Source of the DNA: a virus | Taxonomy: Duplodnaviria; Caudoviricetes | Strand: one strand, 5' to 3' | DNA length: 64,000 nucleotides | Virus record (IMG/VR): IMGVR_UViG_3300023283_000173 | Coordinates: 16,495 to 80,494 of that record | Shown here: piece by piece, positions 11,641 through 48,282 of the stretch | Numbering within the stretch: position 1 is the stretch's first letter | Layout: each line of letters opens with the position of its first letter | Position numbers and translations under genes: made by a program | The notes under the pieces: generated by a model | Told to the model about the DNA's origin: nothing | The model's database searches: none | What the model saw: the letters and a program-made list of their open reading frames with translations, nothing else

Positions 11641-11903
11641 CTGATCTTGTCCAGTATGTTCTTGTCGTCGATCACGGCCCCGAACACGTACACGCAGACG
11701 ATCACGATCAACGTCAGATACGACATCGTCATGGCGGTCTCCGCGGGCTCCGTGTCGACTCCTGTAGCCAGTATGTAGCATACCGTGGCCATGCAGAACA
11801 GGCCTATCACGAACATCACGAGGCGCCGCATCTTCCAGCTACCGTGGTGCTGTAGATTGATCGTCTCTCTCGCGTCTGCAGTCAACTGCACGTCCTCAGT
11901 CAT
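11637..11903 (-). CDS. Holin
   Basis: 88 aa, two hydrophobic helices, charged C-terminus, between endolysin and spanin. Confidence 0.75.
   Translation of the reverse strand: MTEDVQLTADARETINLQHHGSWKMRRLVMFVIGLFCMATVCYILATGVDTEPAETAMTMSYLTLIVIVCVYVFGAVIDDKNILDKIR
11877..11890 (-). promoter_or_regulatory. 14-bp element TGCAGTTGACTGCA, copy 1 of 8
   Basis: Exact match within the first codons of the holin gene. Confidence 0.8.
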
Positions 11904-12450: not shown

Positions 12451-12884
12451 CGCATCCTCTCGCACTCTGGCGGCGTCCAGACGTTGCCCGTCAGCAGCAG
12501 GTACTCGTGGCGCATCTCCTCGATCTGGTCGAACAGCAGTGAGGCGGCTGCGCGGGCACTCGGGTCGTCCTTTACGTCGCAGTACTGACGCTGGTAGTTG
12601 ATCAGGTTCAGCCGCATGTCGCGCTCCTCCATGCGGTCCCAGCGCGCCATGAGTCGGGTAAACTTCGCGTCGAGCTCGTCGAACTGACTGTTCACCTCCT
12701 GCGCCTGCGCGTAACCGGACAGATACGGTACGAGACCCTTGCTGGCAGCTACGTGTCCGACGACGCCCAGCAGCAGGACCAGGTTGAGTACCAGTAGCAC
12801 CTTAATGGCGTTGACCAGTCGCATCTCGAAGTCCTCCTCGCCGGGACGCCTCGGCCACAGCGATCTGAAGTACACCCTGATCAT
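12447..12884 (-). CDS. Single-pass membrane protein at the head of the lysis cassette
   Basis: TM helix IKVLLVLNLVLLLGVVG then coiled coil; ATGA overlap with endolysin. Confidence 0.65.
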   Translation of the reverse strand: MIRVYFRSLWPRRPGEEDFEMRLVNAIKVLLVLNLVLLLGVVGHVAASKGLVPYLSGYAQAQEVNSQFDELDAKFTRLMARWDRMEERDMRLNLINYQRQYCDVKDDPSARAAASLLFDQIEEMRHEYLLLTGNVWTPPECERMR

Positions 12885-31349: not shown

Positions 31350-32076
31350 TTAGGATACCCTCCACAAAACTGAACCGGTGCTTGTGCCCCTGCGCCTCTT
31401 TCGTAAACGTCCCGTGCACGATCTGGTGCGTATGCCCGTCCGGTCCGGGTCCCGTAGAGCCCCCCAGAAACTCACCGCTGTCCGAGAACCTGACCTGGAA
31501 GTCGTGCGAGTGTCCGGCCACCTCGTCGGTCTCTCCCTTCAGCACCTCTGGGAGCTCGACCTCGATCGTCGTCGGCTTCTTGAACCCACGCCCCCCTATC
31601 GAGAACCCGTTCAACTCACCCTTCTTGATCTTGTCCCAGAGGTCCTGGTCCTCGACCTTCACCGCGGCGACCCACGCACCCGCGATGAAGTCGGGGTCCC
31701 CCTCTCTAGCGACGAAGCTCTCAACGATATAGCTCCCCGACTCCTTGCCGTCGTGCTGCACGTCCACCTTGTTCACGCCGCCCTTGGCCATGAACGCGTA
31801 GGCCATGTCGCGGACGCCCTCCGCCGTCATGAAGTCACCGTCGCTGTCCGGGAACCCCGGGACGTACACCTCGCCCCAGACGATCTGCAGCTCCTCATCG
31901 ACCTTCTTCAGCTCGGAGACTTCCATGACGTCGCTCTTGTTCGCCTCCTGACTGGCCAGGATCGCGGCCGCCTGCTTCAGCGCCTTCTCCTTGCCGTCAG
32001 GTCCGGTGAAGCACGTCCCGCCACGGCCCCACTTCCAGCCGGGTTCGTTGTCCTTCTGGCAGCGCATGAGCGGCAC
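31330..32076 (-). CDS. Prohead protease (XkdF-like)
   Basis: QIVWGEVYVPGFPDSDGDFM, VDVQHD, VESFVA, GAWV, GELNGFSIGG. Confidence 0.85.
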   Translation of the reverse strand: MPLMRCQKDNEPGWKWGRGGTCFTGPDGKEKALKQAAAILASQEANKSDVMEVSELKKVDEELQIVWGEVYVPGFPDSDGDFMTAEGVRDMAYAFMAKGGVNKVDVQHDGKESGSYIVESFVAREGDPDFIAGAWVAAVKVEDQDLWDKIKKGELNGFSIGGRGFKKPTTIEVELPEVLKGETDEVAGHSHDFQVRFSDSGEFLGGSTGPGPDGHTHQIVHGTFTKEAQGHKHRFSFVEGILNAKGPD

Positions 32077-32128
32077 GGATACACCTCGTACACCACATAT
32101 CGTGTCTACCTTTACCCTCGGACAAGAG

Positions 32129-32142
32129 TGCAGTCAACTGCA
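32129..32142 (-). promoter_or_regulatory. 14-bp element, copy 4 of 8
   Basis: Exact match between the terminator and the protease gene. Confidence 0.8.
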
Positions 32143-32173
32143 GGCCCGAATGCGCCCCGCGTGTGATCTGAAT

Positions 32174-32208
32174 AAAAAAAAAGCCGACGCTAGGCCGGCC
32201 TCAGTCGG
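32174..32208 (-). terminator. Rho-independent terminator closing the early-gene insert
   Basis: CCGAC...AGGCC/GGCCT...GTCGG stem followed by a 9-T run. Confidence 0.75.
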
Positions 32209-32248
32209 GAAGGTATAGGTTTCGGTTAGTCGATGCGGTTTCCGTTCA

Positions 32249-32479
32249 TCACGTCCTCGACACCAATCTCTTTACGACATCCATATCGATCAACATCGAC
32301 TCGATCTCATCGAGGAGGTCGTCGTCGCTCGGGTCCTCCGCGACCCACTGCTGCCGCGGGATGACTACCTTGAGGTCTGAACGCCGACGGACCTCCCCGA
32401 AGACGTTACCGAAGTCTGAGACCTCCCACCTGAACTCATAGGCGTCGTCGAAGATCGGTGTGGAACCATATGCCTGCAT
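32249..32479 (-). CDS. Small acidic hypothetical protein
   Basis: ACCAAGGAGGGT RBS; within promoter-terminator cassette. Confidence 0.7.
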   Translation of the reverse strand: MQAYGSTPIFDDAYEFRWEVSDFGNVFGEVRRRSDLKVVIPRQQWVAEDPSDDDLLDEIESMLIDMDVVKRLVSRT

Positions 32480-32503
32480 CTCTTCTACCCTCCTTGGTCT
32501 GAT

Positions 32504-32764
32504 TTATCGAACGAAGCACTTCCCGTTGTGAGGTCCGACTCCCCTCCAGACCTGAGTCCCGCTCCTCAAGGTCCGAGAGAAGACGAACTTCATCTCGAGG
32601 TCGAGAGTGTTGCTCTCGTCGTTGACGTCGTGGACTGTCCCCTTCGCCCAGAAGGACTTCTGGTTAACCACCGTGACCTCGAGTGTTCCCGAGAAACCGA
32701 AGAACTTGACACCGCCGGAAGACCAGGTGTTACTAAACTCAACCATCTGACCTTGCTCAACCAT
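32504..32764 (-). CDS. Small hypothetical protein
   Basis: ACCAAGGAGGGT RBS before ATG 32764; in-frame upstream ATG at 32803. Confidence 0.7.
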   Translation of the reverse strand: MVEQGQMVEFSNTWSSGGVKFFGFSGTLEVTVVNQKSFWAKGTVHDVNDESNTLDLEMKFVFSRTLRSGTQVWRGVGPHNGKCFVR

Positions 32765-32809
32765 CTTACCCTCCTTGGTCTTGGGATTTGTGTTTGTATT
32801 CATACTCTT

Positions 32810-32838
32810 AACTTAGGAGGTAGGATGTAGTTTGTCAA
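32810..32838 (-). promoter_or_regulatory. Strong sigma70 promoter, copy A of 92-bp cassette
   Basis: TTGACA-17-TAAGTT with A/T-rich upstream tract. Confidence 0.85.
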
Positions 32839-32865
32839 GTAGGCAGGTAAAGATTTTTACGTTTT

Positions 32866-33030
32866 TTACCTGTTCGTTTTCGTGGGATCGACCTCGATCT
32901 CGAGACCCTCCGCAGAGGCCCACACCCACTTCAGGCGACGTGCCTCCACAGGTACGTCCTCGGGAGACACCTCCGTCGCGACCGCGGCCTCCTCGTCAGT
33001 AAGCTCCTGCTTCTCTACCTTATCACTCAC
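32866..33030 (-). CDS. 54-aa acidic protein, candidate ART immunity/partner (not in ORF track)
   Basis: Manual translation MSDKVEKQELTDEEAAVATEVSPEDVPVEARRLKWVWASAEGLEIEVDPTKTNR; GTGA overlap with the ART stop. Confidence 0.6.
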   Translation of the reverse strand: MSDKVEKQELTDEEAAVATEVSPEDVPVEARRLKWVWASAEGLEIEVDPTKTNR

Positions 33031-34556
33031 TCTATCAACTCCGCTTCTACGACCCTCACTCCGTTTATGGTCTCCTGCGTGACCTTAGTCAGGCGTAACT
33101 TGGTACGCCTCGCTAGTAACAACTCTGACTCGAAGGAACTGCCTCCGACCTCTGACTTACCTATAGGTATAGCTCTCGTACCTCTTTTCAACTTGATACG
33201 AAGGACCACGTCTTCTAGAGGATTCTCGACGAAACTCTTCATTACATCTCTGTCCGTTGTAACCGACATAAACCCTGGATCTCTTACAGCAGATCCCTCC
33301 AAGAAAGACAGGTCGTCTACACCAAATGTATCTTTAGCCTTTCTCACACCCCTGTACACGACCACATCTCTCTGGATCGCAGACACCCTGACTACTGAGT
33401 CAAGTGAGTCGACAACACGCTCGAAACCAAGAAAGTCGAGCCTGTCCTCAGAGACCTCGGCTATTATAGTAGGAGGTAGTGTCTGACCTCTCAACCTAGC
33501 ATTCAACGCCAAGTACCCATCACCCTGATAGAACTCTACCATGTTTCTCTCGGTTGAAGTGAGGTCTCGCGCTATGGTGGCCTTCTCAACAAACTCTTTG
33601 TACCCCTTAGTCCCTACGAACTCCTTGAAATCAGCCTGCTCGACAACCGGGGCCTCCACCTGCTGCGTATCCGGTGCCTGCTGCACGGGCACCACCTCGG
33701 TGACCGACCCCGCCTCGACCAATACGCCCCGGCAATTCGGATGGTACGGTGGACTTCCCAGGTTCTCGTCCTGAAGCTGCTGCGGCGTTTTCGAGCGGAG
33801 GACCGCCACCGCTTCCGGCTTCTGACTGGGCCACGGCGCTACGCTCCTGAGCTCCTGCGGATCCTGCGTGCGTAGTGCTCCGTCTATCCTCGAGAATTCC
33901 TTGCTTACCTCGAACGTCTTGCCATGCATCGTCTCGCAGACGGGACATATCCGGTCGTCGAGTATCTCGCTGACCTGATAAGTCGTGATCTGGAGCTGCT
34001 GCGCCTCGGCGAGGAACCCAAAAGTCACGAGGCGGCTAGTGAACAGGTTCGCCCCGATCTCGGTGACACTGCGACCGCCCCCGAGCACCACCCTGTTGAT
34101 CTTCTCGACCAACACCTCGTCTGCCTGCTTCTGCAGTACCTCCCCGTCGTCGTCCTTGCTCAGGCGCTGCTCCTCAGCGTCAAGTAGTCGGTCCAGGCGG
34201 TCCCGCAGTCCGTCAGACAGGTCCTCGAGCAGCTCGTCGAACTGCCTCACCGCGTTGTCGACCACCTCGCTGACCGACACGCCGCCCTGCACGATCGCCG
34301 TCTGCTCTACCTCGGTGAGTCTGGCCCCGCCCAACAGCATCGCCGACACAGCCAGCTCCTCCAGCCTGTTCCGTATCGCGTCGACCACCCCTCGCGTGGA
34401 GATCGAGTCCGCAGCGTCGGACGCCTGCTTGAACTTCCCCTCCGCGAGTAGGTCGGCAACCTGTCGTGCCTTCTCCTCGGCCTCCGCCCGCCACGCCTCG
34501 AAGACCGCGTCGGCCACGGTGGACTCCAGCGACAGGAAGGCCTCAACCTTGACCAC
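33027..34556 (-). CDS. MuF/SPP1 gp7-like minor head protein fused to a C-terminal ADP-ribosyltransferase
   Basis: EILDDRICPVC...HPNCRG (MuF); YQGDGYLALNARLR, VYRG, GFMSVT, ESELLL (R-S-E clade ART). Confidence 0.88.
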   Translation of the reverse strand: MVKVEAFLSLESTVADAVFEAWRAEAEEKARQVADLLAEGKFKQASDAADSISTRGVVDAIRNRLEELAVSAMLLGGARLTEVEQTAIVQGGVSVSEVVDNAVRQFDELLEDLSDGLRDRLDRLLDAEEQRLSKDDDGEVLQKQADEVLVEKINRVVLGGGRSVTEIGANLFTSRLVTFGFLAEAQQLQITTYQVSEILDDRICPVCETMHGKTFEVSKEFSRIDGALRTQDPQELRSVAPWPSQKPEAVAVLRSKTPQQLQDENLGSPPYHPNCRGVLVEAGSVTEVVPVQQAPDTQQVEAPVVEQADFKEFVGTKGYKEFVEKATIARDLTSTERNMVEFYQGDGYLALNARLRGQTLPPTIIAEVSEDRLDFLGFERVVDSLDSVVRVSAIQRDVVVYRGVRKAKDTFGVDDLSFLEGSAVRDPGFMSVTTDRDVMKSFVENPLEDVVLRIKLKRGTRAIPIGKSEVGGSSFESELLLARRTKLRLTKVTQETINGVRVVEAELIE

Positions 34557-36355: not shown

Positions 36356-38722
36356 TCAGGTCGCGGGTACGGGGTGTGCAGTCAACTGCAACTCCTCCAC
36401 GTCTCCCATGTTATAGCCCAACTGTGCGTCGACAGGGAAGGGCACAGTCGGACGCCATCCGACTCGCTCCAGCGGGAGGTTCTCCATGATCTCCGCCTGT
36501 TGTCTAGCGAGTTCCTCGGCCCTCGACTCGGACACGTAGCTCACCGAGTTGTCGTGTACCATACCGCAGACCACCAGGTCGTCCTCGTCGAAAGAGGCCT
36601 CGATCTCGGAGACCGCGTAGACCATCATGTCGGTAAGCGTAGACTGGATAGGTGAGTTGATGGCCTGCCTTTCAGCACGCGACTGCACGACCCAGTCCCT
36701 GCTCGCTATGTGGGGTAGGTGCCTTATCCGACCCAGCGGACTCCTGACCATCTTGTACTTGTGCGCAGTCCTGATCATCCGATCGTGGTACGTGAGCAGA
36801 CCCGGGTAGAGCTCGAAGAACGCGTCTATCATCTGCTGCGCCTCTTCGAGCGTCAGACTGATACCGTAGTTGGCCCAGGCGTAGTCCACGAACCCGGCGG
36901 CCCTCATACCGAACAGTAGACCGAAGTTTCCCGCCTTGGCCCGCGTGCGCACCGACTTGAACATGTCGGAGTCACTGTCCTTGAGTCTCAGAAACTCGGC
37001 CAGCGCGTAACCCGCTAGCTTCGCGCCGGTGATCGAGTGAGGGTCCTGACCCTCCAGGAACGCCCTCGCCAGGGTCGGCTCCGGCGCCACCTCGGCCGCC
37101 ACACGCAGCTCTCCCTGTGCGTAGTCCTCTATCAGGATCTTCATCCCGGGCGGGGCCACAAAGCAGCGTCGTATCTCCTTCGCCCACTTCGTCTTGTTCG
37201 GTAGCGTCTGGTACGGAGGGTCCTTGCAGGCGAGCCTGCCGGACACGGTACCCGACTCCTCACGGTCCATGTAGTCCCCGTGGAACAGCATGTAGCTCGG
37301 ATGCAGCAACCCGTCGTCCCTCACGTCGTCCAGAAACCCGTCTACGAAGGACGACTTCGTCTTCTCCGCCCCGTTCAGCTCCTTCAGCACGTCGCACATC
37401 GCAGCCGCATCGGGGTGGTCGCGAAACATCTCGAGGTGTGCCCTCGTCGTCGACGGCTCACCGGTCTTCTCCGTCCTCATCTTCGGTCGTAGTCTGAGGC
37501 CCCTTTTCCCGAAGAAATACTCCTTGACGAGCGCGGGAACCAGCGGCGACTTTCCCCTCCGCGCTTGGTCTTCAATTTTGTCAGAGTACTCCCTGCGCAG
37601 GCCCGGTGTCAGCAGACTCACTGCCCTCTTGCGTTGCTCTACTATCTCCGACTCCAAACGTGACTGGAGCCTCGCGTAGCGGTCCTTGTCTATCCAGACC
37701 CCACAGCGCTCCACCCTCTCGAATGCGCGGGCACCGGGGTGGAGTATGTTGACGTAGAACCGCGCCAGGACCCCGTCCCCCAGCAGCTCGTCACGCTCTT
37801 CCTCCGCCACCCTGTAGGTCGCATCGCAGTCTCCTCCCTGGTATTCCAGCAGGTCGTTCGGCGGTACGAGGTCCATCCTGCCCTTGTCGTACTTGGCGTC
37901 GAACTCGGCCTCGTAGCCGCCGATGTCAGTGTAGGTCTTCGCGTGCAGACTGAGGCTGTTCCGTCGGTTCTCATTGAGCAGGGACCCCACGAGAGTCGTA
38001 TCCAGGCGGAAGTTCGTACACTCGACGCCCCACTTCAACCACAGCCAGTGCAGGTCGAACTTGAAGTTCGCGCCCCTCATGGATACGAAGTCCGCCTGTA
38101 GTAGCCACCTGACGTTCTCCAGCAACCTACTCGACAACTGCACAGGGTGCGTCCTCGGACCTACGTACGCGCAGTCGGCCCTGCCGGCCGCGTCTGAGAA
38201 TCCGATCGAGACGATGTTCTTCGACCTGGCCCACGGGTCCAGGCCCTCGGTCTCGAGGTCGCAGGCTACGGCTACCCGCTCACCCGTATCCTCGTGTCTC
38301 TTCTTCACGCGTCGTATCAGGTCCTCGAAGTCGGCCACCCACCTGTACGTCCCGGTCGAGGGTAGCATCGACCCCGTGCGAGACACCCTCGCGGCCAGCC
38401 TACAGTCCCACTCCAGGTACGGCTCCTTACCCGGGTCGTTGTCCACGACGCCGGGGTCGTAGGTCACGAACAGGGGCACCTCAGAAGACCTGAACTGCCT
38501 CTCCCTGAGCGAGTCGATCGTGCGGTTACGAGGCAGTACTCCCGCCCCCTGCAACTCCTTCACTGCTGCCGACCCGCAGACGAGGACGGGATGATTCTGT
38601 ACGACGGCGTCTCGTACCCCTTCCGGCTCGACGCACCTCACCTGGTCTCTCGAGAGGCCGCCCCTGACGAGTGCGTCTAGGACCCTGCGCCGCGGCTCTC
38701 CCCTGCGGACCACGACTATCAT
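36356..38722 (-). CDS. polA: Family A DNA polymerase with N-terminal UDG-like and 3'-5' exonuclease domains
   Basis: ACDLETEG (ExoI), ANFKFD, YQGGD, TVSGRL...P..Q, DYAQGELR, RTRAKAGNFG, GMVHD; N-terminal VLVCGSAA...VTYDPG. Confidence 0.93.
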   Translation of the reverse strand: MIVVVRRGEPRRRVLDALVRGGLSRDQVRCVEPEGVRDAVVQNHPVLVCGSAAVKELQGAGVLPRNRTIDSLRERQFRSSEVPLFVTYDPGVVDNDPGKEPYLEWDCRLAARVSRTGSMLPSTGTYRWVADFEDLIRRVKKRHEDTGERVAVACDLETEGLDPWARSKNIVSIGFSDAAGRADCAYVGPRTHPVQLSSRLLENVRWLLQADFVSMRGANFKFDLHWLWLKWGVECTNFRLDTTLVGSLLNENRRNSLSLHAKTYTDIGGYEAEFDAKYDKGRMDLVPPNDLLEYQGGDCDATYRVAEEERDELLGDGVLARFYVNILHPGARAFERVERCGVWIDKDRYARLQSRLESEIVEQRKRAVSLLTPGLRREYSDKIEDQARRGKSPLVPALVKEYFFGKRGLRLRPKMRTEKTGEPSTTRAHLEMFRDHPDAAAMCDVLKELNGAEKTKSSFVDGFLDDVRDDGLLHPSYMLFHGDYMDREESGTVSGRLACKDPPYQTLPNKTKWAKEIRRCFVAPPGMKILIEDYAQGELRVAAEVAPEPTLARAFLEGQDPHSITGAKLAGYALAEFLRLKDSDSDMFKSVRTRAKAGNFGLLFGMRAAGFVDYAWANYGISLTLEEAQQMIDAFFELYPGLLTYHDRMIRTAHKYKMVRSPLGRIRHLPHIASRDWVVQSRAERQAINSPIQSTLTDMMVYAVSEIEASFDEDDLVVCGMVHDNSVSYVSESRAEELARQQAEIMENLPLERVGWRPTVPFPVDAQLGYNMGDVEELQLTAHPVPAT
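36377..36390 (-). promoter_or_regulatory. 14-bp element, copy 5 of 8
   Basis: Exact match in the last codons of the polymerase gene, 50 nt before the portal start. Confidence 0.8.
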
Positions 38723-39048
38723 CTGACACGCTCCCACCCGTCCTCCTGCCTCCACTTGGCCTTACACTTACCATCGTCCCTCAGCTCCAGGAACACGGTC
38801 ACGTAGGGCGGCCGCGCACGATACATGACGAACTCTACGCCCTCCCGTACGCACACGACGAACTCCTCACGGCCCCTCACCTTCCTCGATCCTACGAACA
38901 TCAGCGTCAGACGGAGTGGGTTATCGTCAGGACCAGGTACCGGTATCGGGACTTCCGAGGCCCCGTAGTTCTCTCCGAACGAAGACGAACGCCACACAGT
39001 CATCTCGAAGGTATCGGCAACGTTCGCCAGCCTCACTCCTCCATCCAC
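38719..39048 (-). CDS. Hypothetical protein
   Basis: ATGA overlap with polymerase. Confidence 0.6.
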   Translation of the reverse strand: MDGGVRLANVADTFEMTVWRSSSFGENYGASEVPIPVPGPDDNPLRLTLMFVGSRKVRGREEFVVCVREGVEFVMYRARPPYVTVFLELRDDGKCKAKWRQEDGWERVR

Positions 39049-39246: not shown

Positions 39247-39978
39247 TCACTTCCCCTGTATCTTCTTGATCACCGGCACCGGCGTCGAGACGTTCCCGAC
39301 CGCCGCGAGTATGGCGCCCACGGTACGCGCAGCATTGTCCGGTACAATTACGTCTAAGTGTGCGGACATGTGTCCGTCCTGGTGATACGCCATACACACC
39401 TTCTGTAGCTGCACTCTGTCTTCCTCGTCGACGTTCTCGGCCCTCACACTCAGCGCCGTGCCAGACACTCTCGCCGCTATCTTGGTCCCCCTGTCCGTCC
39501 AACCCACCACGAAGTAGCGACTGCCTGGACTCGATCCCTTGACTGGCTGGTAGAGCCTGGTCGCGTCCTTCAGCAGGACGGGGGTCATCGACGTCATCTC
39601 GTTCTCCGAAACCTCGCCGTGGTGCTCGACGCCATCGGGTACGGAGACGTCCGTTCCGGGGGTGATCTCTACGTCGACAACTGTCTTGGCCTGTTTCTGC
39701 TTCTTTAACCCGAACAAAGCATCGGCGACGATGTCCCTGAGTTTGTTGACCGTAGCGAGATTGCACGTCTTTAGTGCCCCCTTGGAGGCCCCGTCCTGCG
39801 TATTGTGCACCTCGAAGAACGCACCCTTCGGCACCTCCTTCGTCACAACGGCGGCGCCGGCCTCGAACACGAGCTTCTCGCCCGAGACGTCTCGCCAGAC
39901 CGTCAGGTCCTCGGACTCATAGGTGAGCTTTAACAACGAGAGTAACACCTTCTCGTCAACCTGTATCATCGCAGCCAT
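39247..39978 (-). CDS. Hypothetical protein
   Basis: ACCAAGGAGGGT RBS; 243 aa. Confidence 0.75.
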   Translation of the reverse strand: MAAMIQVDEKVLLSLLKLTYESEDLTVWRDVSGEKLVFEAGAAVVTKEVPKGAFFEVHNTQDGASKGALKTCNLATVNKLRDIVADALFGLKKQKQAKTVVDVEITPGTDVSVPDGVEHHGEVSENEMTSMTPVLLKDATRLYQPVKGSSPGSRYFVVGWTDRGTKIAARVSGTALSVRAENVDEEDRVQLQKVCMAYHQDGHMSAHLDVIVPDNAARTVGAILAAVGNVSTPVPVIKKIQGK

Positions 39979-39996: not shown

Positions 39997-40641
39997 CTAG
40001 ACGTCGTGTACCTCGGATCCGACATCATCGTCGTCTACCCTACCGAAGATCGACCACCTCGTACCCTCGAGGTGCATCACCCGTCTCCCGCTCCCGGTAT
40101 CGAACGACGTGTAACTGCACGAATCCCCCCACTTCTTCTCCCTCGCCTCTACCCTCGTCACACCGTAGTACTCTACCAGGAAGTCTACCTGCTCCTTCGA
40201 CTCAACAGCCTTCTCACAGTAGTGCTCACGCACATACCCTATCGCGTCGATAGTACCACAGAGAGAGACCATGGCTGCCAGCACCGTACCCGTACGTCCG
40301 TGCCCCCCTATACACCCTACATGTACCTTCTTCCCGTCGAACACCTGCTCGACCAACCACTCAACCATGTCGCGGAAATCAGAGGGATTATCAGGCGCAC
40401 ATCTGTCACTGACGGGGAACAGGAACTCAGTACCGTTCCTCCACGGCCACGCCCGTCTACTCACCCGCATCGAGCAGTCCAGTCCAACGTAGACGTCAGC
40501 GTCAGTCACGACCGGGCTCGAGCACGAACCCCCGTAGACTACTGGTCCGTCGTCCCACAGAGCTATAGGTTGATGACCAGTGTAACACCTCTTGACCTTA
40601 CCAATCATGTCTGGTCCGTTCTTATGTCTCTTATACGACAT
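39997..40641 (-). CDS. Dual-specificity/protein tyrosine phosphatase-like
   Basis: VHVGCIGGHGRTG (CX5R), IGYVREHYCEKAVESKEQ. Confidence 0.85.
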   Translation of the reverse strand: MSYKRHKNGPDMIGKVKRCYTGHQPIALWDDGPVVYGGSCSSPVVTDADVYVGLDCSMRVSRRAWPWRNGTEFLFPVSDRCAPDNPSDFRDMVEWLVEQVFDGKKVHVGCIGGHGRTGTVLAAMVSLCGTIDAIGYVREHYCEKAVESKEQVDFLVEYYGVTRVEAREKKWGDSCSYTSFDTGSGRRVMHLEGTRWSIFGRVDDDDVGSEVHDV

Positions 40642-41581
40642 CTCGCTCGACCTTCTTCACTACCAGATCAGGCATGACCCAGAACGCGCTCTCGTCTTTG
40701 GTCGCCAACTGGTTAGCCTTATATGTGTCGTATGACATCAATGAACCAGCCTCCTCTACGAGAGACCAGTCTACGTAGTCTCCGACCAGATCTCGTACAT
40801 AGTCTTTCATAAAGTATGCAAGAGTACTTGTCTCTTTAGTCAAGAAGTGTACCCAACGACCCTCTACTATACCCTCGATCACCTGACCTGACCTCTGTAC
40901 ATCCAGTAACTCTATCAAATAGTTCGAGTACATATCGTAATGCATACCTTTATTGAATATAGGTCCGTTGTTGTGACACAGACTCCACACCGTATCCAAG
41001 AACATCTCCGGCGTGTAGCTCCCGTCCACGTAGCGAACGACGTTCCTCGCCACCTGTGCCCACGGCTCTCCACCGAACTGCTTACCGAACATACCCTCGC
41101 GAAACGCCAGGTCCACCGCTCTGAACGCGTCACCTACGGGTACGTACGCACAGGATAGGATGCCGTCTGGAGCTCCGCCGCCGGCCATCATGAACCTGAC
41201 GAAAGACGCCGCATCCAGAGAGGTCTCGTCTACTAGACGCTTCTCCAACTCTGGATCATCCTTACTGCCACAGTGACGCATCTCTCGCGTACAGATCACG
41301 ATGGAGTAGAGGAGAGCCCGTCCTACCGCCTTAGCTGTACGCCCCCTCCATGCAAGCAGGTGTCGGTACAGGTCGTCACGAACGACCTCGTGTTCGTGAT
41401 GCACCCTGTGCATGAGACCCAACGCCTGAACACCCACATAGAAGTCCAGCATGTCGGTCTCAGGTCTAGTCGAGTCACATAGTGACATGGTTAATCTGTT
41501 GTATATCTGATTTACAGACACGTGAGATACGTCTCGTGGAGAGAATAACGGAGACTTTCGTATCTCAGCTATGCAAGTCAA
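40631..41581 (-). CDS. Hypothetical protein, lower GC
   Basis: Own promoter and RBS before TTG 41581; REMRH, GGEPW, HNNGPIFNKG. Confidence 0.75.
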   Translation of the reverse strand: MTCIAEIRKSPLFSPRDVSHVSVNQIYNRLTMSLCDSTRPETDMLDFYVGVQALGLMHRVHHEHEVVRDDLYRHLLAWRGRTAKAVGRALLYSIVICTREMRHCGSKDDPELEKRLVDETSLDAASFVRFMMAGGGAPDGILSCAYVPVGDAFRAVDLAFREGMFGKQFGGEPWAQVARNVVRYVDGSYTPEMFLDTVWSLCHNNGPIFNKGMHYDMYSNYLIELLDVQRSGQVIEGIVEGRWVHFLTKETSTLAYFMKDYVRDLVGDYVDWSLVEEAGSLMSYDTYKANQLATKDESAFWVMPDLVVKKVERDVV

Positions 41582-41607
41582 GTGTACCCTCCTTGGTCTC
41601 ACCTAGT

Positions 41608-41636
41608 ATACTAGTCCTATACACACTATCAGTCAA
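41608..41636 (-). promoter_or_regulatory. Sigma70-like promoter
   Basis: TTGACT-17-TAGTAT; -10 lies in palindrome CTAGTATACTAG. Confidence 0.7.
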
Positions 41637-41639
41637 TAT

Positions 41640-42155
41640 TTAATGCCTAGTCCACTCTCCGATAGTCATACCTACACGTCTAGCCAGTACCAACAACCAC
41701 GTCGGACACCTACGCACCAACTCCTCCTGCTCGGTCGTCTCGACGGCGCCCTCATAATACGCGGACCGAAGCACCTTTACTACGTCACCTCTAACCCCGC
41801 TCGCCTTCAGGACGAGAGCCATGATCGTACCCGTCCGCCCCTGTCCGAAGTGACAGCCAACACCCACCGTACCAGCCCTCACTCCCTCTGCGTAGACAAA
41901 TACGACCGACCTCAGTACCTGCCATAGCGTGGGTACACCGAAGTCTCGGACACCCACGTACAGGTCTCCGGACGCGACGAAGCCCTCTCGCAGGCACAGT
42001 GTGCGTACGAGTGGGTACTGAATACATACCTTGTCGTACGCACCTCCGACCATGACGAACAGGCCGGACCTGCCGTGAGATACTAAGACACCCACCGGGT
42101 CCAGGCCCACGGTACGGTGTGTCGACGTGTCGCGTGAGAGATCAACGGCGGTCAT
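41640..42155 (-). CDS. Second CX5R phosphatase-like protein
   Basis: VGVGCHFGQGRTG, LRSAYYEGAVETTEQ. Confidence 0.8.
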   Translation of the reverse strand: MTAVDLSRDTSTHRTVGLDPVGVLVSHGRSGLFVMVGGAYDKVCIQYPLVRTLCLREGFVASGDLYVGVRDFGVPTLWQVLRSVVFVYAEGVRAGTVGVGCHFGQGRTGTIMALVLKASGVRGDVVKVLRSAYYEGAVETTEQEELVRRCPTWLLVLARRVGMTIGEWTRH

Positions 42156-42377
42156 CTACGTCTCCATCTTGAACACAGACAATACCCTGCCGTCCTCGAC
42201 CCACATCAGGAAGTCCTCGAACCTACGGTTGGCGAACTCGTGTGTGACCGGTGCCGAACGTCTAGCCATACGTCTTATGCGTGCCGCCACATCACCCCCC
42301 ATACCGAGGGCGCGAGCGTCCTGAACGGCCCCTCTCGTAGGCTCGTACTTACGAAAATCCTCGTGACTACTCTCCAC
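42156..42377 (-). CDS. Small hypothetical protein
   Basis: Packing; SAPVTHEFANRRF. Confidence 0.6.
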   Translation of the reverse strand: MESSHEDFRKYEPTRGAVQDARALGMGGDVAARIRRMARRSAPVTHEFANRRFEDFLMWVEDGRVLSVFKMET

Positions 42378-42639
42378 GCGCCCTGTCTCCTCGTATGATC
42401 TCCAACGACCGCGGCGCGTCGATGACCAGCCTCACGTAAGCCGGTGAGCTACGACTCCCCACGGACAGAAACACGTCCGGAAGGACTTCGGTAGCCAGGT
42501 CCTCGGTGATCTCGAACCTCTCGCCGTCCTCCCTAACCACGATGCACCCCGCCGGTTTACTGACTATATCGCATACTACCAACACGGCGTCGCCGACATA
42601 CAGGTCTTCTCCCTCGTGCATCGTAAGGACTAGTGCCAC
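42367..42639 (-). CDS. CsrA/RsmA-like protein with internal insertion
   Basis: MALVLTMHEGEDLYVGD at N-terminus and VRLVIDAPRSLEIIR at C-terminus match CsrA beta strands. Confidence 0.6.
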   Translation of the reverse strand: MALVLTMHEGEDLYVGDAVLVVCDIVSKPAGCIVVREDGERFEITEDLATEVLPDVFLSVGSRSSPAYVRLVIDAPRSLEIIRGDRARGE

Positions 42640-44729
42640 TCCGTCTCTCCTGCCTCTAGGTACCCCAGCAGCAACTGGCCTGGGACGAACAGCTCACCGA
42701 CCGGACACACAGACAAGGACTGCTCCTCTGCCTTACTCAGTACGACGTCCATGATCTCTCTACCCCCGAACAGTTCGTCCGCAACGTCGTCTCGTACCAT
42801 GAACGGAACACCCGATAGCACCTCCCTCAGGTTCTTCGCCTCTCTCAGGTTCTTGAACCCAGCATACTGACTGGTAGTATGCGCCACCAGCCTGTGCTGA
42901 TACCCGGATAAGTCGTGCTGCATCATCCGCGACAAGACGTCCTCACACCAGTCCTGAAACGACGACTCCGTATACGGCTCCACAAGGTACGTCATCTCTC
43001 CCGGCAGCACGTACCGCTCTCGAGAGCAGTCTACGACCAATACAGACGGACCGCACTCTACCATAGCACCAACTACCATCTCCACGACCTCGTCAGGTGT
43101 CGTACCGAGTCCGTACAGTAACTCCATCTTCACCCAGTAGGGACACCCCGACACCGGTTCGTCGAACCCGGCACCCACGACACGCCGTGCAGTCAACTGC
43201 AGTGCTGTGTCGAGACCCGGCGGGTCACCGTCCTCCACAGGTACGTCCTCATCAACCCACACCGAGCCGCTCTCGCCGCACACCGTCAGTATGGTGTCTG
43301 CCGTCAGCGGTACCCCATTCAGGTACACAGCTCCTGCCTCATTGAAGCTCAGGTCGTTACACCCTACCACGCAGGGGACCCCCATCGCCCGCGTCACCAC
43401 GGCGGCGTGGCTCGTCGACCCTCCGTTACGAGTCACCACCGCGGCCGCCTTGCGAATTGCCTCGACGTCCTCCGGCGAGGTGTCGTGTACGACCAGCACC
43501 TTGTCCTCCGTATCCTCGTCTCGAGAGTAGGCGGCCCTTCCCGACCCCACGCCCGGTGTCACTGCGATACCCTTGCCCGTCGGCTCGACGTCGTACCCCT
43601 CGCGCACTCTCGGTCGAGTAGCGGTCTTGTAGTGCTCCGGCCTGACCATCCTGACCAGGTCGTCGCCGCCCACCATACCCCCGTCTACCATATCGGAGAA
43701 GATGCGGAACGCCGCCTTACCGGTCCTCTTGCCGGGACGAGCCTGTAGGACGTAGAGCACGCCCTCCTCGACGGTGAACTCCACGTCCACCATGTCGCGG
43801 TACTCGTCCTCGAGGACCGCCGAGACGGTCGTCAGCTCGTCGTAGACCCTCTTCCACACAGGTCCGAAGTCACCGTTCTCCGCCAGTCTCAGGTCGTGGG
43901 GGGTCACCCTACCGGACACGAGGTCCTCCCCCTGAGCGTCAGGCAGAAACTCTCCGTAGATCCCTCTATCGCCGGTTCGCGGGTCTCGCGTAAACAGCAC
44001 ACCGGTGCCGCTGTCCGGACCTCGGTTACCGAACACCATCTGTTGCACGACCACGGCCGTGTACATGTCATCAGACAAGCAGTCGGCTCTCCGGTAGGCG
44101 ACGGCCCGTTCGGATGACCAGCTCCTGAACACCGCCGTGATAGCCTCGTACAGTTGTTCCTCCACCGTGTCAGGCCACTCCCTGCCCGTGTACTTCTCGA
44201 GGGTGTCCACTAACCTTTGTACACGGTCCAGGTCGTCGAGCAACTCATCGTGCAACAGCACGTCCCACATGTTCGTGAGCGTCGTCTCCGATACACCCCA
44301 CGCGGACGTCGCGAGCGACCACACCAGGTTCCGTAAACACCGAACAGCGGTAGCGTCTCCGACGTCCTCCTCGACGTCCCGGTAGGTCTCGGACGTGACG
44401 CCTACGTTCAACACCGTGTCCATCATGCCCGGCATGGAGACGGGAGCACCTGACCGTACCGACACCAGCTTCCCGTCGAAGCCGCCTGACTCGCACGGAA
44501 ACATGGCGGACACTACTTCGCCCACGAGGCTCTTCACGAACTCGTGACGTCCGTCTTCGTCCTCGTAGTACCTGTGACACGCCGAGGTCGGGACGACCAC
44601 CCCGGGCGGTATCCTGAGATACTCCTGCTCTATACGAGACATACGGACGAGACCTGCGCCCTTACCCCCCAGCAGCTCAGGGTCGGGCTCGACGCTCGGT
44701 ACGACGTCACCAAACCTCACGATGTCCAT
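42630..44729 (-). CDS. PPDK-family dikinase: ATP-grasp and phosphohistidine domains plus a non-canonical C-terminal domain
   Basis: LLGGKGAGL, LVSVRSGAPVSMPGMMDTVLNVG, QQMVFGN..SGTGVLFTRDP, QGEDLVSG, DVEFTVE, LQARPGKRT, GGSTSHAAVV (His 43407-43409). Confidence 0.9.
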   Translation of the reverse strand: MDIVRFGDVVPSVEPDPELLGGKGAGLVRMSRIEQEYLRIPPGVVVPTSACHRYYEDEDGRHEFVKSLVGEVVSAMFPCESGGFDGKLVSVRSGAPVSMPGMMDTVLNVGVTSETYRDVEEDVGDATAVRCLRNLVWSLATSAWGVSETTLTNMWDVLLHDELLDDLDRVQRLVDTLEKYTGREWPDTVEEQLYEAITAVFRSWSSERAVAYRRADCLSDDMYTAVVVQQMVFGNRGPDSGTGVLFTRDPRTGDRGIYGEFLPDAQGEDLVSGRVTPHDLRLAENGDFGPVWKRVYDELTTVSAVLEDEYRDMVDVEFTVEEGVLYVLQARPGKRTGKAAFRIFSDMVDGGMVGGDDLVRMVRPEHYKTATRPRVREGYDVEPTGKGIAVTPGVGSGRAAYSRDEDTEDKVLVVHDTSPEDVEAIRKAAAVVTRNGGSTSHAAVVTRAMGVPCVVGCNDLSFNEAGAVYLNGVPLTADTILTVCGESGSVWVDEDVPVEDGDPPGLDTALQLTARRVVGAGFDEPVSGCPYWVKMELLYGLGTTPDEVVEMVVGAMVECGPSVLVVDCSRERYVLPGEMTYLVEPYTESSFQDWCEDVLSRMMQHDLSGYQHRLVAHTTSQYAGFKNLREAKNLREVLSGVPFMVRDDVADELFGGREIMDVVLSKAEEQSLSVCPVGELFVPGQLLLGYLEAGETEWH
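43188..43201 (-). promoter_or_regulatory. 14-bp element, copy 6 of 8
   Basis: Exact match inside the PPDK-like gene near the start of the novel C-terminal domain. Confidence 0.75.
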
Positions 44730-44754
44730 GTAACCCTCCTTGGTCTCACCTAGT

Positions 44755-44783
44755 ATACTAGTCGTTATGTGTCGAAATTACAA
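44755..44783 (-). promoter_or_regulatory. Sigma70-like promoter
   Basis: TTGTAA-17-TAGTAT; 31-bp leader identical to 41586-41616. Confidence 0.7.
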
Positions 44784-45222: not shown

Positions 45223-45373
45223 CTCCCAGTGACTGAACCTCGTCCTTTACCCTGTCGTCCGTCTCGTCGACCGAAACACCCTCGTCATCGTACTCATAGT
45301 CGTAGCCGTGCCCGTCCAGCCAATCCACGAACTGCGACAACCCAACGTCGGACCCGAAGACGTACCTAGGCAA
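45209..45373 (-). CDS. Small acidic protein
   Basis: TTG start overlapping the terL stop; MPRYVFGSDVGLSQFVDWLDGHGYDYEY. Confidence 0.55.
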   Translation of the reverse strand: MPRYVFGSDVGLSQFVDWLDGHGYDYEYDDEGVSVDETDDRVKDEVQSLGGESV

Positions 45374-47675
45374 CTCGGTCCTCCCTCTGTACCTGCTCCA
45401 GTATAGATGCAGGCATATGCTCGAGCCCGACCTCGTGCCGGAGCCACACCTCGCGCTGACGCACGAGACCGAACGCCACCCCCGCCATAGCATCGGCAAC
45501 GTCCTTACTGAAGTTAGGGGGGTGATCGATCTTGTTCCGCTTGAAGTCCCTCTCCAACGAGACGATCTCCTTCTCGGCCTTGGCGTGAGGCGGAGCCTGC
45601 ACGCGCCGGTCATAAAGAGCCTGCTTCAGCACGTCATACGGCTGGGTCGTCGCGTCCACGCTCTGCACCCCCGTCGAGAACCCCTTCTGACTGAGGATCT
45701 GGAGTGAGTCCCTCGACTGCCACGAGTCGTAAGTCACCCACTTCACCGGGCACCCCAGGTCGCACAGCGCGTACAGTAGCTCCCTGATCTTCTCGAACGA
45801 CACCTCTCCTCCCCGCGGCGGCCGCACTTCAAGCAACACATCGTACTCGACCACCGGCAGAGTCTCCACCTCCTGACCGCGCCGCACGTGTACGAACCCG
45901 GGTACGTGGCCCACGGCGACCCCGGCCGAGTCAGAGCTCAGGCCCAGGTCCACGTGAGCGAAGCGTGGCTCGGACAGGTGACGCATCCGCTTCGGGTATA
46001 TCTGGACCTTCGTACCTCGGAAGTCACACCACTCCCGACTCAGTATCCTAGGCGATGTCCCAAAGCACGCAGCGACTGACTCCCTGTCCTGGATGAACGG
46101 GTGCACCGCCAGTGTAGAGACGCCCCCGATATCCCGCAGGGCCGCCATGAGGTCTTCCTCGAAGGCATGCCTGTAGTCCGTCGGTATGCGCTCGCACATG
46201 TCCCTGTCGTCTTCCGCGAGTTCCTCGTACTCGTCGTCCTCGAGTATCCGAGGTCTCCTGGACTCGTCCCCGCGGAACACCCAGAACCACCTCTCGGAGA
46301 ACGTACCCTCCGGCTTCACCTCCCAGAGCTTCTTGTCGAACACGAATATCTTATCGTTGCGCCGGGCCTCCTCGATCTTCTTGTCGGTGAACTCCCCGGG
46401 ATACTTCTTCGACGACACCAGGCAGAGCATCCCCGGTACGGTACCTCTCCGCATGAAGCGAGACTCACGACGACGCGAGATCGACCTGTAGAGCGCCAGT
46501 GCCTGGTCGTAGAAGCCATTCTCATCGCCGGCCTTAGACCGCTCGACCACGGCCATGTAGTTGCAGTTGTGCACGACTACGCCGTTGGCGACGTAGGTAT
46601 GCGTACGCCGCGTCTCTATATTGTACACCTGCCTATGACCTAATTTTCTGACGAAAACAACTCGTGCTCGATCAAGACCGTGAACACCCGACTCCCCTCC
46701 TCGGCGAACCTCCTCGCAGCCTCTTAGGCCCCCGGATCTTTCGGTGCCGGCACAATGAACCTCTTGTCCTACTCGTAGGTCTCCCAGACCTACCCAACCC
46801 GTGCTCGTCAGTAACGGGTGACTGGCAGTACCTACGAGACGAGACCCGTTATCGAACTCTACCTCCAATACATCTTTGAGTCCCGTGTATCTACTCGCCT
46901 CGACACGATCACGAACTACCTGTCCGTCCTCTACGCCGTATACAGCGTCTCCGGCGACCAAGGAATCGATCCTCACCGGTCCCGCGGGGGTGGACACGAG
47001 CGAGTCACCCACCAGGCACTCGTCCATGACGCCCCCGAACACGTTCTTCCCTATAGCAGCACTAGGGTCGCCACTAAGAGGCTCCACTATGATTCTGCGC
47101 GGGAACTCCATACGAGACTCTAGACTGCGGTTGTACGGAAAATCCCGGCGGAAGAACGGCGAGTTGTCGATCATCGCCCGAAAACGGTCGTAGTCGACGG
47201 ACTTGGACAGCTCCTTCTTCAGGTTCTGGAACACGAACTCGATCTCCGAGCTCGGCTGCAGGTCAAAGAACCCGTGCGGGTCGTCCATGCAGGCCAGCTC
47301 ATACAGCGAGTACGCGGTGGCCAGCAGGGCCAGCGTCGTTTTTCCACTTCCGATACTGCCCGTCAGGACGGCCTCGACGTAATTGCCGAGACACAGCTCC
47401 TCCAGACTTTCCATGACGACAGGGTAGACCTCCCCCGTCATCGCCATCAGGTCGGTCGACTCGACGAAGGTCCGAGGGTCGACCGGCAACTCCCGATACC
47501 TTATGGACGACCTGGCCCTGCGTCGTAGTTGTACTATCGCGCCGCGCAGGTACTCCAGCCTGTCGTCGGAATCGGACACGGTCTTCGAGTACGCCCACAC
47601 GACCCTCCCCGATCTGCCCATCCCAGAGAGTATCCTGCAGGCGGCCACCAGGGGGTGACAGACGTCACCCGTCAT
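45366..47675 (-). CDS. terL: Terminase large subunit (intein-containing)
   Basis: Walker A TGSIGSGKT, Walker B GGVMDE, nuclease HVDLG..SD.AG, SKDVADAMAG. Confidence 0.9.
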   Translation of the reverse strand: MTGDVCHPLVAACRILSGMGRSGRVVWAYSKTVSDSDDRLEYLRGAIVQLRRRARSSIRYRELPVDPRTFVESTDLMAMTGEVYPVVMESLEELCLGNYVEAVLTGSIGSGKTTLALLATAYSLYELACMDDPHGFFDLQPSSEIEFVFQNLKKELSKSVDYDRFRAMIDNSPFFRRDFPYNRSLESRMEFPRRIIVEPLSGDPSAAIGKNVFGGVMDECLVGDSLVSTPAGPVRIDSLVAGDAVYGVEDGQVVRDRVEASRYTGLKDVLEVEFDNGSRLVGTASHPLLTSTGWVGLGDLRVGQEVHCAGTERSGGLRGCEEVRRGGESGVHGLDRARVVFVRKLGHRQVYNIETRRTHTYVANGVVVHNCNYMAVVERSKAGDENGFYDQALALYRSISRRRESRFMRRGTVPGMLCLVSSKKYPGEFTDKKIEEARRNDKIFVFDKKLWEVKPEGTFSERWFWVFRGDESRRPRILEDDEYEELAEDDRDMCERIPTDYRHAFEEDLMAALRDIGGVSTLAVHPFIQDRESVAACFGTSPRILSREWCDFRGTKVQIYPKRMRHLSEPRFAHVDLGLSSDSAGVAVGHVPGFVHVRRGQEVETLPVVEYDVLLEVRPPRGGEVSFEKIRELLYALCDLGCPVKWVTYDSWQSRDSLQILSQKGFSTGVQSVDATTQPYDVLKQALYDRRVQAPPHAKAEKEIVSLERDFKRNKIDHPPNFSKDVADAMAGVAFGLVRQREVWLRHEVGLEHMPASILEQVQREDRVA
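46566..47018 (-). mobile_element. 151-aa mini-intein in TerL without a homing endonuclease
   Basis: CLVGDSLVST N-block, TASHPLLT B-block, VYNIET...YVANGVVVHN/C C-block; inserted right after the Walker B DE. Confidence 0.93.
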
Positions 47676-48282
47676 CGACCGTCTCACCCTCTATCACGCG
47701 GTAGAGCTCCTCCTGCTCCTCCGTCCAGTCGAAGTGAGTCTCCCGTCCGTCCGGACCGACCAGGGTCCCGGTCATGTGCTTCGGAGCCCGCGACATGATG
47801 CCTGTCTCCAGTTGCAGCCTGCCCAGCTCGACGAGCAGGTCCTTCAGGAAGCGCATCTCTTCCGTCACCATCTTGAGGAGCATACCTTGTGGACGCCCGG
47901 TCTTCCGCTCGTTCCTGGCGACGGCCTCGACGCGCTCCTTCTGCTCTACGACGAGTCTCTCTACCTCGTCTATCACGTTCAGGTTCTGCACGACGTGCGT
48001 CGTGGCCCGCTGTCTGTTCACTGCCAGGGCGCGCTCCGTGATCTCCTCGACCGTTCTCTTCCTAACGACGTTCCTGACGTACCGGAGCAGGTACCTGTGC
48101 AGGGTAGTTCTATTGACGCCCTGGACGAGGCCCCACTCCTCGTGGATCTTCTTGGCTACCTTGAGTGCGCTCACCCCGTCGCGCAGCAGTGCGTCGACCT
48201 CGTTCAGTTTATTCGGAGGCAACTCCAGGAGTTTGGACGGTATACCCTTGGCCACAGACCTACTCCGAGTCTGTCTCGGCAT
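47665..48282 (-). CDS. Terminase small subunit
   Basis: N-terminal HTH, coiled coil, overlaps terL start. Confidence 0.7.
   Translation of the reverse strand: MPRQTRSRSVAKGIPSKLLELPPNKLNEVDALLRDGVSALKVAKKIHEEWGLVQGVNRTTLHRYLLRYVRNVVRKRTVEEITERALAVNRQRATTHVVQNLNVIDEVERLVVEQKERVEAVARNERKTGRPQGMLLKMVTEEMRFLKDLLVELGRLQLETGIMSRAPKHMTGTLVGPDGRETHFDWTEEQEELYRVIEGETVDDG

Follow-up and report, generated by a model that had tools for sequence, protein, structure and literature searches.

We analysed a 64,000-nucleotide window (positions 16,495 to 80,494) of the IMG/VR virus record IMGVR_UViG_3300023283_000173, a member of the Caudoviricetes, and in it a gene for a kinase that resembles pyruvate phosphate dikinase (PPDK) over its N-terminal two thirds. 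The gene and the features around it are listed in Table 1. The stop codon of the preceding open reading frame (ORF) lies 28 nt upstream of the kinase ORF. Downstream follow two small conserved genes, two genes for phosphatase-like proteins with a CX5R motif, a gene for a protein of the family phrog_20946 that stands between these two, and finally the gene for DNA polymerase I (PolA). The upstream side holds the genes for a 154-aa protein, the large terminase with an intein, a ParB-like protein and, from 49133, a run of glycosyltransferase and sugar genes.

Table 1 Features of the kinase locus, in order along the minus strand (window coordinates; locus counts refer to the set of 82 loci defined in the text)
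Feature	Position	Strand	Remarks
19-nt element GACTAGTATACTAGGTGAG, copy 1	44745..44763	minus	15 nt before the kinase ATG
Dikinase gene (P0001)	42630..44729, including stop codon	minus	699 aa, ATG start; ORF list, translation, Pfam, phrog_18609
ATP-grasp nucleotide-binding domain, residues ~1-375	43605..44729	minus	aligns with PPDK chain residues 3-~400; pLDDT mostly 70-94
Swivel phosphohistidine domain, residues ~376-494	43248..43604	minus	GGSTSH motif
C-terminal region, residues 495-699: linker helix and apparent short beta/alpha barrel remnant without catalytic motifs	42633..43247	minus	AlphaFold (AF2), Atlas, hhalign
Small conserved protein, 90 aa, weak CsrA-like C-terminus	42367..42639	minus	PF02599 4.9e-6, 26.8 bits vs cut-off 27; NF002469 5.5e-4
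Small conserved protein, 73 aa, no family	42156..42377	minus	same position in 30/82 loci
CX5R phosphatase-like protein b, 171 aa (P0243)	41640..42155	minus	CHFGQGRTG
19-nt element GACTAGTATACTAGGTGAG, copy 2	41598..41616	minus	16 nt before the phrog_20946 start; promoter-like TTGACT-17-TAGTAT listed
phrog_20946 protein, 316 aa (P0122), candidate acceptor-binding partner	40631..41581	minus	predicted all-helical, fold without known match
CX5R phosphatase-like protein a, 214 aa (P0242)	39997..40641	minus	CIGGHGRTG
Conserved hypothetical protein, 243 aa (phrog_25950)	39247..39978	minus	between phosphatase and PolA in 45/82 loci
DNA polymerase I, family A with 3'-5' exonuclease; downstream end of the module	36356..38755	minus	Pfam DNA_pol_A 3.5e-62; downstream in 60/82 loci

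Pfam recognised a PPDK_N domain (PF01326, 5.7e-43) and a PEP-utilizers domain (PF00391, 2e-21, residues 408-487) in the kinase, and nothing else. Over this part the protein is close to PPDK (EC 2.7.9.1; C. symbiosum 1KBL/1DIK, Flaveria 5JVN), with which it shares the ATP-grasp and swivel histidine domains at ~40% identity over residues 1-~495, the catalytic histidine within GGxTSH and the linker helix. The GGSTSH motif occupies residues 436-441, and the catalytic His441 is encoded by codon 43407-43409. When the family profile was aligned with solved PPDK, with 5jvn aligned from residue 3, the ATP-grasp residues of the kinase paired with the same residues. The best 120 protein matches of the search, which we used as the family set, comprised 88 proteins of 608-744 aa with PF01326 and PF00391 only and 32 proteins of at least 860 aa that also carried PF02896 (PEP-utilizers_C, PEP being phosphoenolpyruvate). 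Across the 88 short proteins, G21, G22, K23, R92-D104, E317, Q329, R331, T439 and H441 were invariant, as were the motifs GGK, RSGAxSMPGMMD, DxEFT and LQxRxGKR. By these sequences, both the ATP-grasp domain and the swivel domain that bears His441 are intact, and strong constraint acts on them. The initial annotation of the locus, which had described intact ATP-grasp motifs and a GGSTSH domain in a protein of 699 aa, is in this respect confirmed by the Pfam matches, the 88-sequence alignment and the alignment with PPDK.

Profiles of defined families placed the protein outside PPDK proper. TIGR01828 scored 400.3 bits, below its cut-off of 843.45, with residues 18-494 covering profile positions 16-504 of 865. 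The short 'PPDK' profile NF004531 (PRK05878, 534 positions) gave 362.1 bits against a cut-off of 456 (residues 15-459), and NF041857 for rifamycin-inactivating phosphotransferase gave 68.9 bits against 999. The phage family phrog_18609, labelled 'kinase', matched at 1.8e-122 (residues 18-512 vs profile positions 23-517 of 685), and the C-terminal third of that profile stayed unmatched. Members of phrog_18609 have the same gene order and the same truncated architecture as the window kinase, but identity to them is only 32-42%, and the window C-terminus is a long variant that departs from the family consensus. In a tree built from the N-terminal part common to short and long proteins, a branch with support 1.0 set the 88 short forms apart from 29 full-length PPDKs; three long sequences in which the His motif used for cutting was not found had been dropped, and the long sequences are only those returned by the search. 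The tree shows the short forms as one clade and does not address where they originated. We conclude from the curated score and the barrel region described below that the kinase belongs to the PPDK superfamily and not to PPDK itself; it falls within phrog_18609 and within a conserved phage module.

Cultured phage relatives found by BLAST were 32-42% identical over residues 1-~491, with none of 60 records covering 80% of the query. They include the groups of Vibrio phages J26, SIO-2 and VHS1, the Stenotrophomonas phages DLP3, DLP5 and Summit, the Rhizobium phages RHph_TM16 and RHph_Y1_11, and the Rhodobacter phage RcZahn. The kinase relatives are gp135 in DLP3, EVB27_131 in RHph_TM16 and ORF98 in J26. 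Megablast of the kinase gene against phage records gave no match. A pattern search of IMG/VR gave 229 matches, of which 170 encoded a relative of the kinase; the best 80 of these 170, together with the loci of RHph_TM16 and DLP3, made up a set of 82 loci that we searched with the window proteins.

The C-terminal region sets the kinase apart from PPDK. The alignment of the family profile with solved PPDK stopped at about chain residue 550, past the linker helix and into the first barrel strand, and the PPDK match of the kinase ended around residue 494-540. The domain beyond measures ~165-205 aa in the kinase, compared with ~340-385 aa in PPDK. When hhalign was given the 88 short C-termini and the 32 full-length PPDK C-domains, it aligned only 30 linker columns at a probability of 27.7%. 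In a forced joint alignment the kinase kept 9 of the 115 near-invariant PPDK C-domain positions, defined as the same in at least 31 of the 32 full-length sequences. The blocks GLxRTExMF, NPMxGxRGCR, FFSFGTNDLTQ, GxCGEHGG and SCSP were found in just 0-3 of the 88 short proteins, and the window kinase has none of them, also in the shorter forms GLxRTE, FSFGTNDLTQ and CGEHGG. PF02896 was found neither in the kinase protein by Pfam nor in the six frames of the 80,494-base record, which is 83% complete according to CheckV and so may lack a piece, at E ≤ 1; the control for the six-frame search was positive in 14 of 14 genomes. Because no PPDK barrel motif survives and no PEP-utilizers_C was found in the record, we consider a pyruvate/PEP activity very unlikely. 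On this sequence evidence the kinase is very probably not a pyruvate/PEP enzyme or a PPDK of central metabolism, and the PPDK label of its cultured relatives appears to be wrong.

These results agree with the initial annotation in that the C-terminus lacks PPDK barrel motifs, as hhalign and the block counts indicate, and in that the gene is not a central-metabolism PPDK, for which the TIGR01828 score, the 9 of 115 positions and the missing PF02896 all speak. A neighbouring gene that might supply the barrel was not seen either: the record gave no PF02896, and the neighbouring 316-aa phrog_20946 protein is all-helical in its model.

Structural models were used to look at what remains beyond the swivel domain. 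AlphaFold modelled the whole kinase with a predicted local distance difference test (pLDDT) of 76 and a predicted template-modelling score (pTM) of 0.70, with a pLDDT of only 47-78 for residues 500-699. In this model residues ~495-699 form a linker helix followed by strands alternating with helices. VIA-align placed the C-terminus on the barrel region of PPDK and Enzyme I. Among the 10 models nearest to the Atlas model of residues ~505-699, most were barrel-type enzymes, at template-modelling scores (TM) of 0.42-0.53; their families (GHL10, URO-D, AP_endonuc_2, melibiase, radical SAM and chitinase) are ones that we take to be barrel enzymes. The forced alignment retained a few possible relics, namely the glycine after the first strand in 72 of 88 proteins, the proline of LLDP in 69 and the terminal proline in 73. 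Together, this looks like a decayed, about half-size remnant of the PEP/pyruvate barrel, poorly conserved and with no catalytic residue left. The initial annotation had instead proposed that the barrel was replaced by an unknown domain of about 190 aa, a fresh acceptor domain joined on as in rifampin phosphotransferase or glucan water dikinase. Neither proposal was supported, as the C-terminus looks more like a barrel-like beta/alpha piece (pLDDT 47-78; TM 0.42-0.53). Since this piece is short and free of the motifs, and does not model as a PEP-binding TIM barrel, the models do not speak against the view of the annotation that the gene is not a central-metabolism PPDK.

The C-terminus also varies within the family. 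Its length was bimodal in the 88 proteins, with 109-166 aa in 46 and 184-227 aa in 42, the window copy being of the long kind. Positions conserved family-wide in this region are VPV, WWG, D567, a second Asp, FG and a terminal P..YA.F..L; in the window copy LYG stands for WWG, M for an Asp conserved at 91% and YT for FG. A phmmer search with the C-terminal 205 aa against 1.84 billion representatives returned no relative besides the protein itself and P0121. We rejected P0121, a repeat protein of 3,796 aa whose score is the sum of 41 weak repeat matches, as an artefact. The C-terminus alone gave 0 matches in tblastn against the 82 loci.

The genes downstream of the kinase were conserved together with it. 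In the loci of RHph_TM16 and DLP3 the gene order is that of the window, from the kinase over the CX5R phosphatase-like genes and phrog_20946 to PolA. In 63 loci the sequence extended for 5.6 kb or more beyond the kinase. Of these, 61 had phrog_20946 together with one or both phosphatases no more than 6 kb downstream, and 59 had phrog_20946 and both phosphatases. The partners were missing from two loci, L063 and L071, whose proteins have the size of a full PPDK (866 and 877 aa, of which 422-428 follow the His motif); the partners thus go with the short form of the kinase and not with the full-length PPDKs of the same set. For the reverse search, 185,579 species were represented by one genome each and scanned with a pattern for phrog_20946 relatives. 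Nine loci resulted, and all nine had the kinase upstream together with the phosphatases. Most of them come from contigs of ~60-95 kb in metagenome bins or from larger, chromosomal ones. A Thalassobaculaceae genome (L090) holds a chromosomal relative of the module. The 90-aa protein with the CsrA-like tail occurred in 48 of the 82 loci and in 7 of the 9 genome loci.

A glycosyltransferase was present in 14 of the 82 loci, a lower bound as many upstream flanks are short. The link of the kinase to glycosyltransferases is clearly looser than its link to the phosphatases, phrog_20946 and PolA. The two phosphatases that the initial annotation had placed near the kinase are there (39997-40641 and 41640-42155). 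Its sugar operon also exists, as the run upstream from 49133, but the co-occurrence with glycosyltransferase clusters in other phages that it had proposed to check is loose. The G+C content dips to 0.543 at window positions 40001-42000, over the phosphatase and phrog_20946 genes, compared with ~0.59-0.66 in most of the window, and a further dip to 0.546 lies at 32001-34000.

The phrog_20946 protein, ~320 aa long in the loci, was modelled from 49 homologues as a confident all-helical structure (pLDDT 91.9, pTM 0.87), and by this model it is not a TIM barrel. It matched no Pfam, NCBIfam or PADLOC family and no fold in the PDB, and a BFVD search gave only 4 unnamed viral relatives. Its 27 invariant positions are rich in Arg, His, Lys, Asn and Asp and include R99, R102, H103, D196, H203, N204, N210, K211, D227, Q229 and R230, which looks like an active or ligand-binding site. 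Atlas feature matches to restriction-enzyme recognition domains (0.81-0.86) fell below the bar of 0.9 and serve as a lead only.

Both phosphatase-like proteins carry the CX5R signature. Protein a has CIGGHGRTG with an Asp 31 residues upstream, reached 28.3 bits for PTP-SAK against a cut-off of 27, and has small archaeal protein tyrosine phosphatases as its nearest solved structures (5z5a, 1.3e-8). Protein b has CHFGQGRTG with an Asp ~30 residues upstream, fell just below the Pfam cut-offs for Tc-R-P and PTP-SAK, and is nearest to DUSP23 (4erc, 1.2e-6). Both proteins matched phrog_17568. The label 'thymidylate synthase' of phrog_17568 and of DLP3_141 (L002 12647-13423) sits on a CX5R phosphatase-like protein, and is probably an annotation error copied between phages.

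A complex of the phrog_20946 protein with kinase residues 376-699 was predicted from alignments of 49 and 88 rows, respectively. The three runs scored 0.38, 0.48 and 0.00, a median of 0.38, whereas the highest of three controls scored 0.00; the runs shared 58% or more of their contacts and the partner pLDDT was at least 73. The mark for this score is reached by 116 of 157 solved pairs and by 2 of 215 mismatches, and at scores up to 0.60 by only 18 of the 157 solved pairs and by both of the passing mismatches. Binding of the two proteins is weakly supported by this prediction, which slightly favours the idea that the phrog_20946 protein provides or shares the acceptor site of the kinase.

A further tie between the two genes may lie in their upstream regions. 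The 19-nt element GACTAGTATACTAGGTGAG, which holds a 12-nt palindrome and a -10-like TAGTAT, has exactly two copies in the 80.5-kb genome, one before the kinase and one before phrog_20946. Two or more matches were found in 0 of 100 shuffles, and no further copies with up to 3 mismatches were found elsewhere in the genome. We take the element as a putative sign of common regulation of the two genes. In relatives, the upstream regions of the kinase and phrog_20946 genes often share 12-22 nt, but these motifs recur elsewhere in the loci and are not specific there. The promoter of its own that the initial annotation had assigned to the kinase could not be recovered: a scan for sigma-70-like consensus found no site ahead of the gene, the hexamers there (TTGTAA-17-TAGTAT) make 8 of 12 consensus matches, and the region has 3 promoter-like sites compared with 2.3 ± 1.4 in shuffles, which is no excess. 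The ribosome-binding site of the kinase (44730-44745) lies inside a short inverted repeat, ACC-AAGGAG-GGT, and similar hairpin motifs precede both kinase and phrog_20946 in relatives. The phage CsrA-like protein (42367-42639) may exert translational control at such hairpins.

We favour, with a probability of roughly 0.6, the reading that these genes form an ATP-driven phosphotransfer module, in which a PPDK-derived dikinase serves a non-pyruvate acceptor, the acceptor site is supplied by or shared with phrog_20946, and the target may belong to nucleotide or DNA metabolism. A target other than pyruvate is suggested because the pyruvate part has been lost and because the kinase keeps company with phosphatases and phrog_20946 beside a DNA polymerase. 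PPDK, PEP synthase and rifampin phosphotransferase suggest, by analogy, that His441 takes up the beta-phosphate of ATP and that the swivel domain then carries it to the acceptor. The linkage, the 19-nt element and the predicted complex, though weak, suggest that the acceptor site lies on the all-helical phrog_20946 protein, or is shared with it, rather than in the kinase. The linkage would also fit two CX5R cysteine phosphatases that take phosphate off the product or a competing substrate. The barrel remnant may act as a scaffold, the barrel being the dimer interface in PPDK. Placing the target in nucleotide or DNA metabolism and not in central carbon metabolism is a guess from the position beside DNA polymerase I and from the restriction-resistant relatives discussed below.

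Several observations weigh against this phosphotransfer module. The complex score falls in a weak band, in which most passes are false for pairs that were not likely beforehand, and a fused form of kinase and phrog_20946 was not found among proteins of 684-2000 aa, although this search was a weak one. The general-acid Asp in both phosphatases fits ordinary hydrolysis and is silent on the substrate. The term barrel remnant itself draws on a low-confidence model, a weak structural likeness and a forced alignment. On the side of the target, unrelated S. maltophilia phages from the same laboratory as DLP3 are also among those listed as restriction-resistant (PMC8228603), the glycosyltransferase/ParB cassettes of these phages could be another source of the resistance, and Pfam detected no thymidylate-synthase-like or other known base-modifying enzyme in the ORFs scanned.

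Among the alternatives, the literature on cultured relatives holds that the gene is a working PPDK, an auxiliary metabolic gene boosting host glycolysis or gluconeogenesis, and the best database matches are indeed PPDKs. We find this hardly credible given that the match ends at about residue 500, all barrel motif blocks are missing and TIGR01828 reaches less than half its cut-off. The Vibrio phage J26 paper itself reports only four strands in the C-terminal part and an overlap with 1GGO only over residues 1-527 (PMC12038007). Moreover, the linkage to phosphatases and PolA would be unexpected for a glycolytic gene, and the two full-length PPDKs in the loci do not have these partners. A different proposal is that the kinase works alone on a small molecule, the remnant, perhaps as a homodimer of half-barrels, forming the site for a new metabolite, with the phosphatases and phrog_20946 acting later in the pathway. 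PPDK-family enzymes with other acceptors do exist, such as rifampin phosphotransferase (5hv1) and HpeI (9goj), both of which appeared among the structure matches, and the C-terminal positions conserved across the family could mark such a site. However, the window copy departs from them at WWG, the Asp and FG, its C-terminus found no phmmer relative, and the length ranges from 109 to 227 aa in two modes. Because of these departures, the lack of relatives and the variable length, a structural role of the C-terminus fits better than a catalytic one, and we hold an autonomous dikinase to be rather unlikely.

It is also conceivable that the kinase and phosphatases act on proteins as writer and eraser. 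During takeover the kinase would phosphorylate proteins of the host or the phage, while the phosphatases would reverse phosphorylation of either. The phosphatases are closest to small protein tyrosine and dual-specificity phosphatases, and Enzyme I-type His domains do phosphorylate proteins. Yet no Enzyme I-like protein-docking subdomain was seen in the kinase model, the other enzymes of the PPDK family are known for small molecules and glucans, and the fixed place beside PolA and phrog_20946 would be left unexplained, which makes this an improbable account. More doubtful still is a phosphorelay like the sugar phosphotransferase system, in which one or both CX5R proteins would serve as carriers and not as hydrolases, receiving phosphate from His441 on their active-site Cys and delivering it to a final target. 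Such a relay would draw on the phospho-Cys intermediates that CX5R enzymes form, on the two paralogues being kept in 59 of 63 loci and on the homology of the His domain of the kinase to that of Enzyme I. Against it, both CX5R proteins keep the Asp ~30 residues before the Cys that normally drives hydrolysis, and the solved structures nearest to them are those of ordinary small protein phosphatases.

Compared with other dikinases, the kinase is not a rifampin phosphotransferase: its NF041857 score is far below the cut-off, RPH-Lm (5HV1/5FBS) and other non-pyruvate dikinases differ from it in domain order and acceptor domain, the structural overlap is limited to model residues 1-494, and no separate acceptor domain is recognisable in the window kinase. 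Glucan water dikinase and dual-specificity phosphatases of the SEX4/LSF2 or laforin type act on one substrate. The window module resembles these systems in pairing a PPDK-superfamily dikinase with CX5R phosphatase-like proteins, but no carbohydrate-binding module was found in it, the partner is helical by its model with a fold that has no known match, and homology was seen only at the level of the shared superfamilies.

A more specific and rather speculative version, which we consider unlikely but worth stating, is that the dikinase, phrog_20946 and the two phosphatases together modify nucleotides or DNA, in a pathway that has so far escaped recognition. In the chemistry of PPDK an enol oxygen is phosphorylated, and a base carbonyl or another poorly reactive hydroxyl on a nucleotide or DNA could be activated likewise; the phrog_20946 protein with its new fold would then do the substitution, and the phosphatases would clear canonical or mis-activated substrates. 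If true, this would account for the restriction-resistant DNA of DLP3-like cultured relatives. According to the DLP3 paper, DLP3 DNA resisted all 15 enzymes tried, and the nature of the modification is left open there (PMC7326821); DLP5 is likewise listed as restriction-resistant (PMC8228603). Because unrelated phages are resistant too, glycosyltransferase/ParB cassettes are present and no known base-modifying enzyme was found, restriction resistance argues only weakly for a nucleotide or DNA target.

In a listing of sequencing runs for the sequence, no RNA run appeared, but one probable source DNA run and one further run of the same study with a small share did. Other genes of the window were noted in passing. 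Just after the portal gene, a 509-aa protein (33027-34556, minus strand) combines a MuF-like head domain (PF04233, 3.1e-5, below cut-off) with an ADP-ribosyltransferase exoenzyme domain (PF03496, 3e-16); it looks like an ADP-ribosyltransferase carried in the capsid, perhaps to be ejected together with the DNA. An intein splicing domain (PF14890, 8e-8, below cut-off) occupies residues 250-374 of the 773-aa large terminase ORF (45366-47687, minus strand), whose terminase matches themselves are only weak. The endolysin (11896-12465, minus strand) joins glycoside hydrolase family 108 to a PG_binding_3 domain, a pairing that occurs in phages of Gram-negative bacteria, and the host may on this basis be a proteobacterium, despite the G+C content of 62%. 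Another gene common to the phage group encodes a DUF1643 protein (8.7e-33), found in one of the loci (L083, 707-1240, minus strand) and in DLP3 (DLP3_128).

In papers on cultured relatives the gene is called PPDK (PMC12038007, PMC7326821), and one of them carries PPDK in its title and docked PEP into the protein (PMC12038007). The literature covered, which leaves out subscription journals, consisted only of genome descriptions using this name, with none questioning the label and no characterised function. The family has thus been annotated and discussed as a glycolytic auxiliary gene under a label that the present evidence says is wrong. It is widespread, and its gene set is strictly conserved next to the replication genes in ~80-100-kb phages that infect Proteobacteria, among them candidates for therapy against Stenotrophomonas and Vibrio. 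Cultured relatives exist, so that direct testing is possible. A module of four to seven genes with a confidently predicted new fold at its centre points to a phosphotransfer process new to phage infection, possibly the one behind the uncharacterised DNA modification in these phages.

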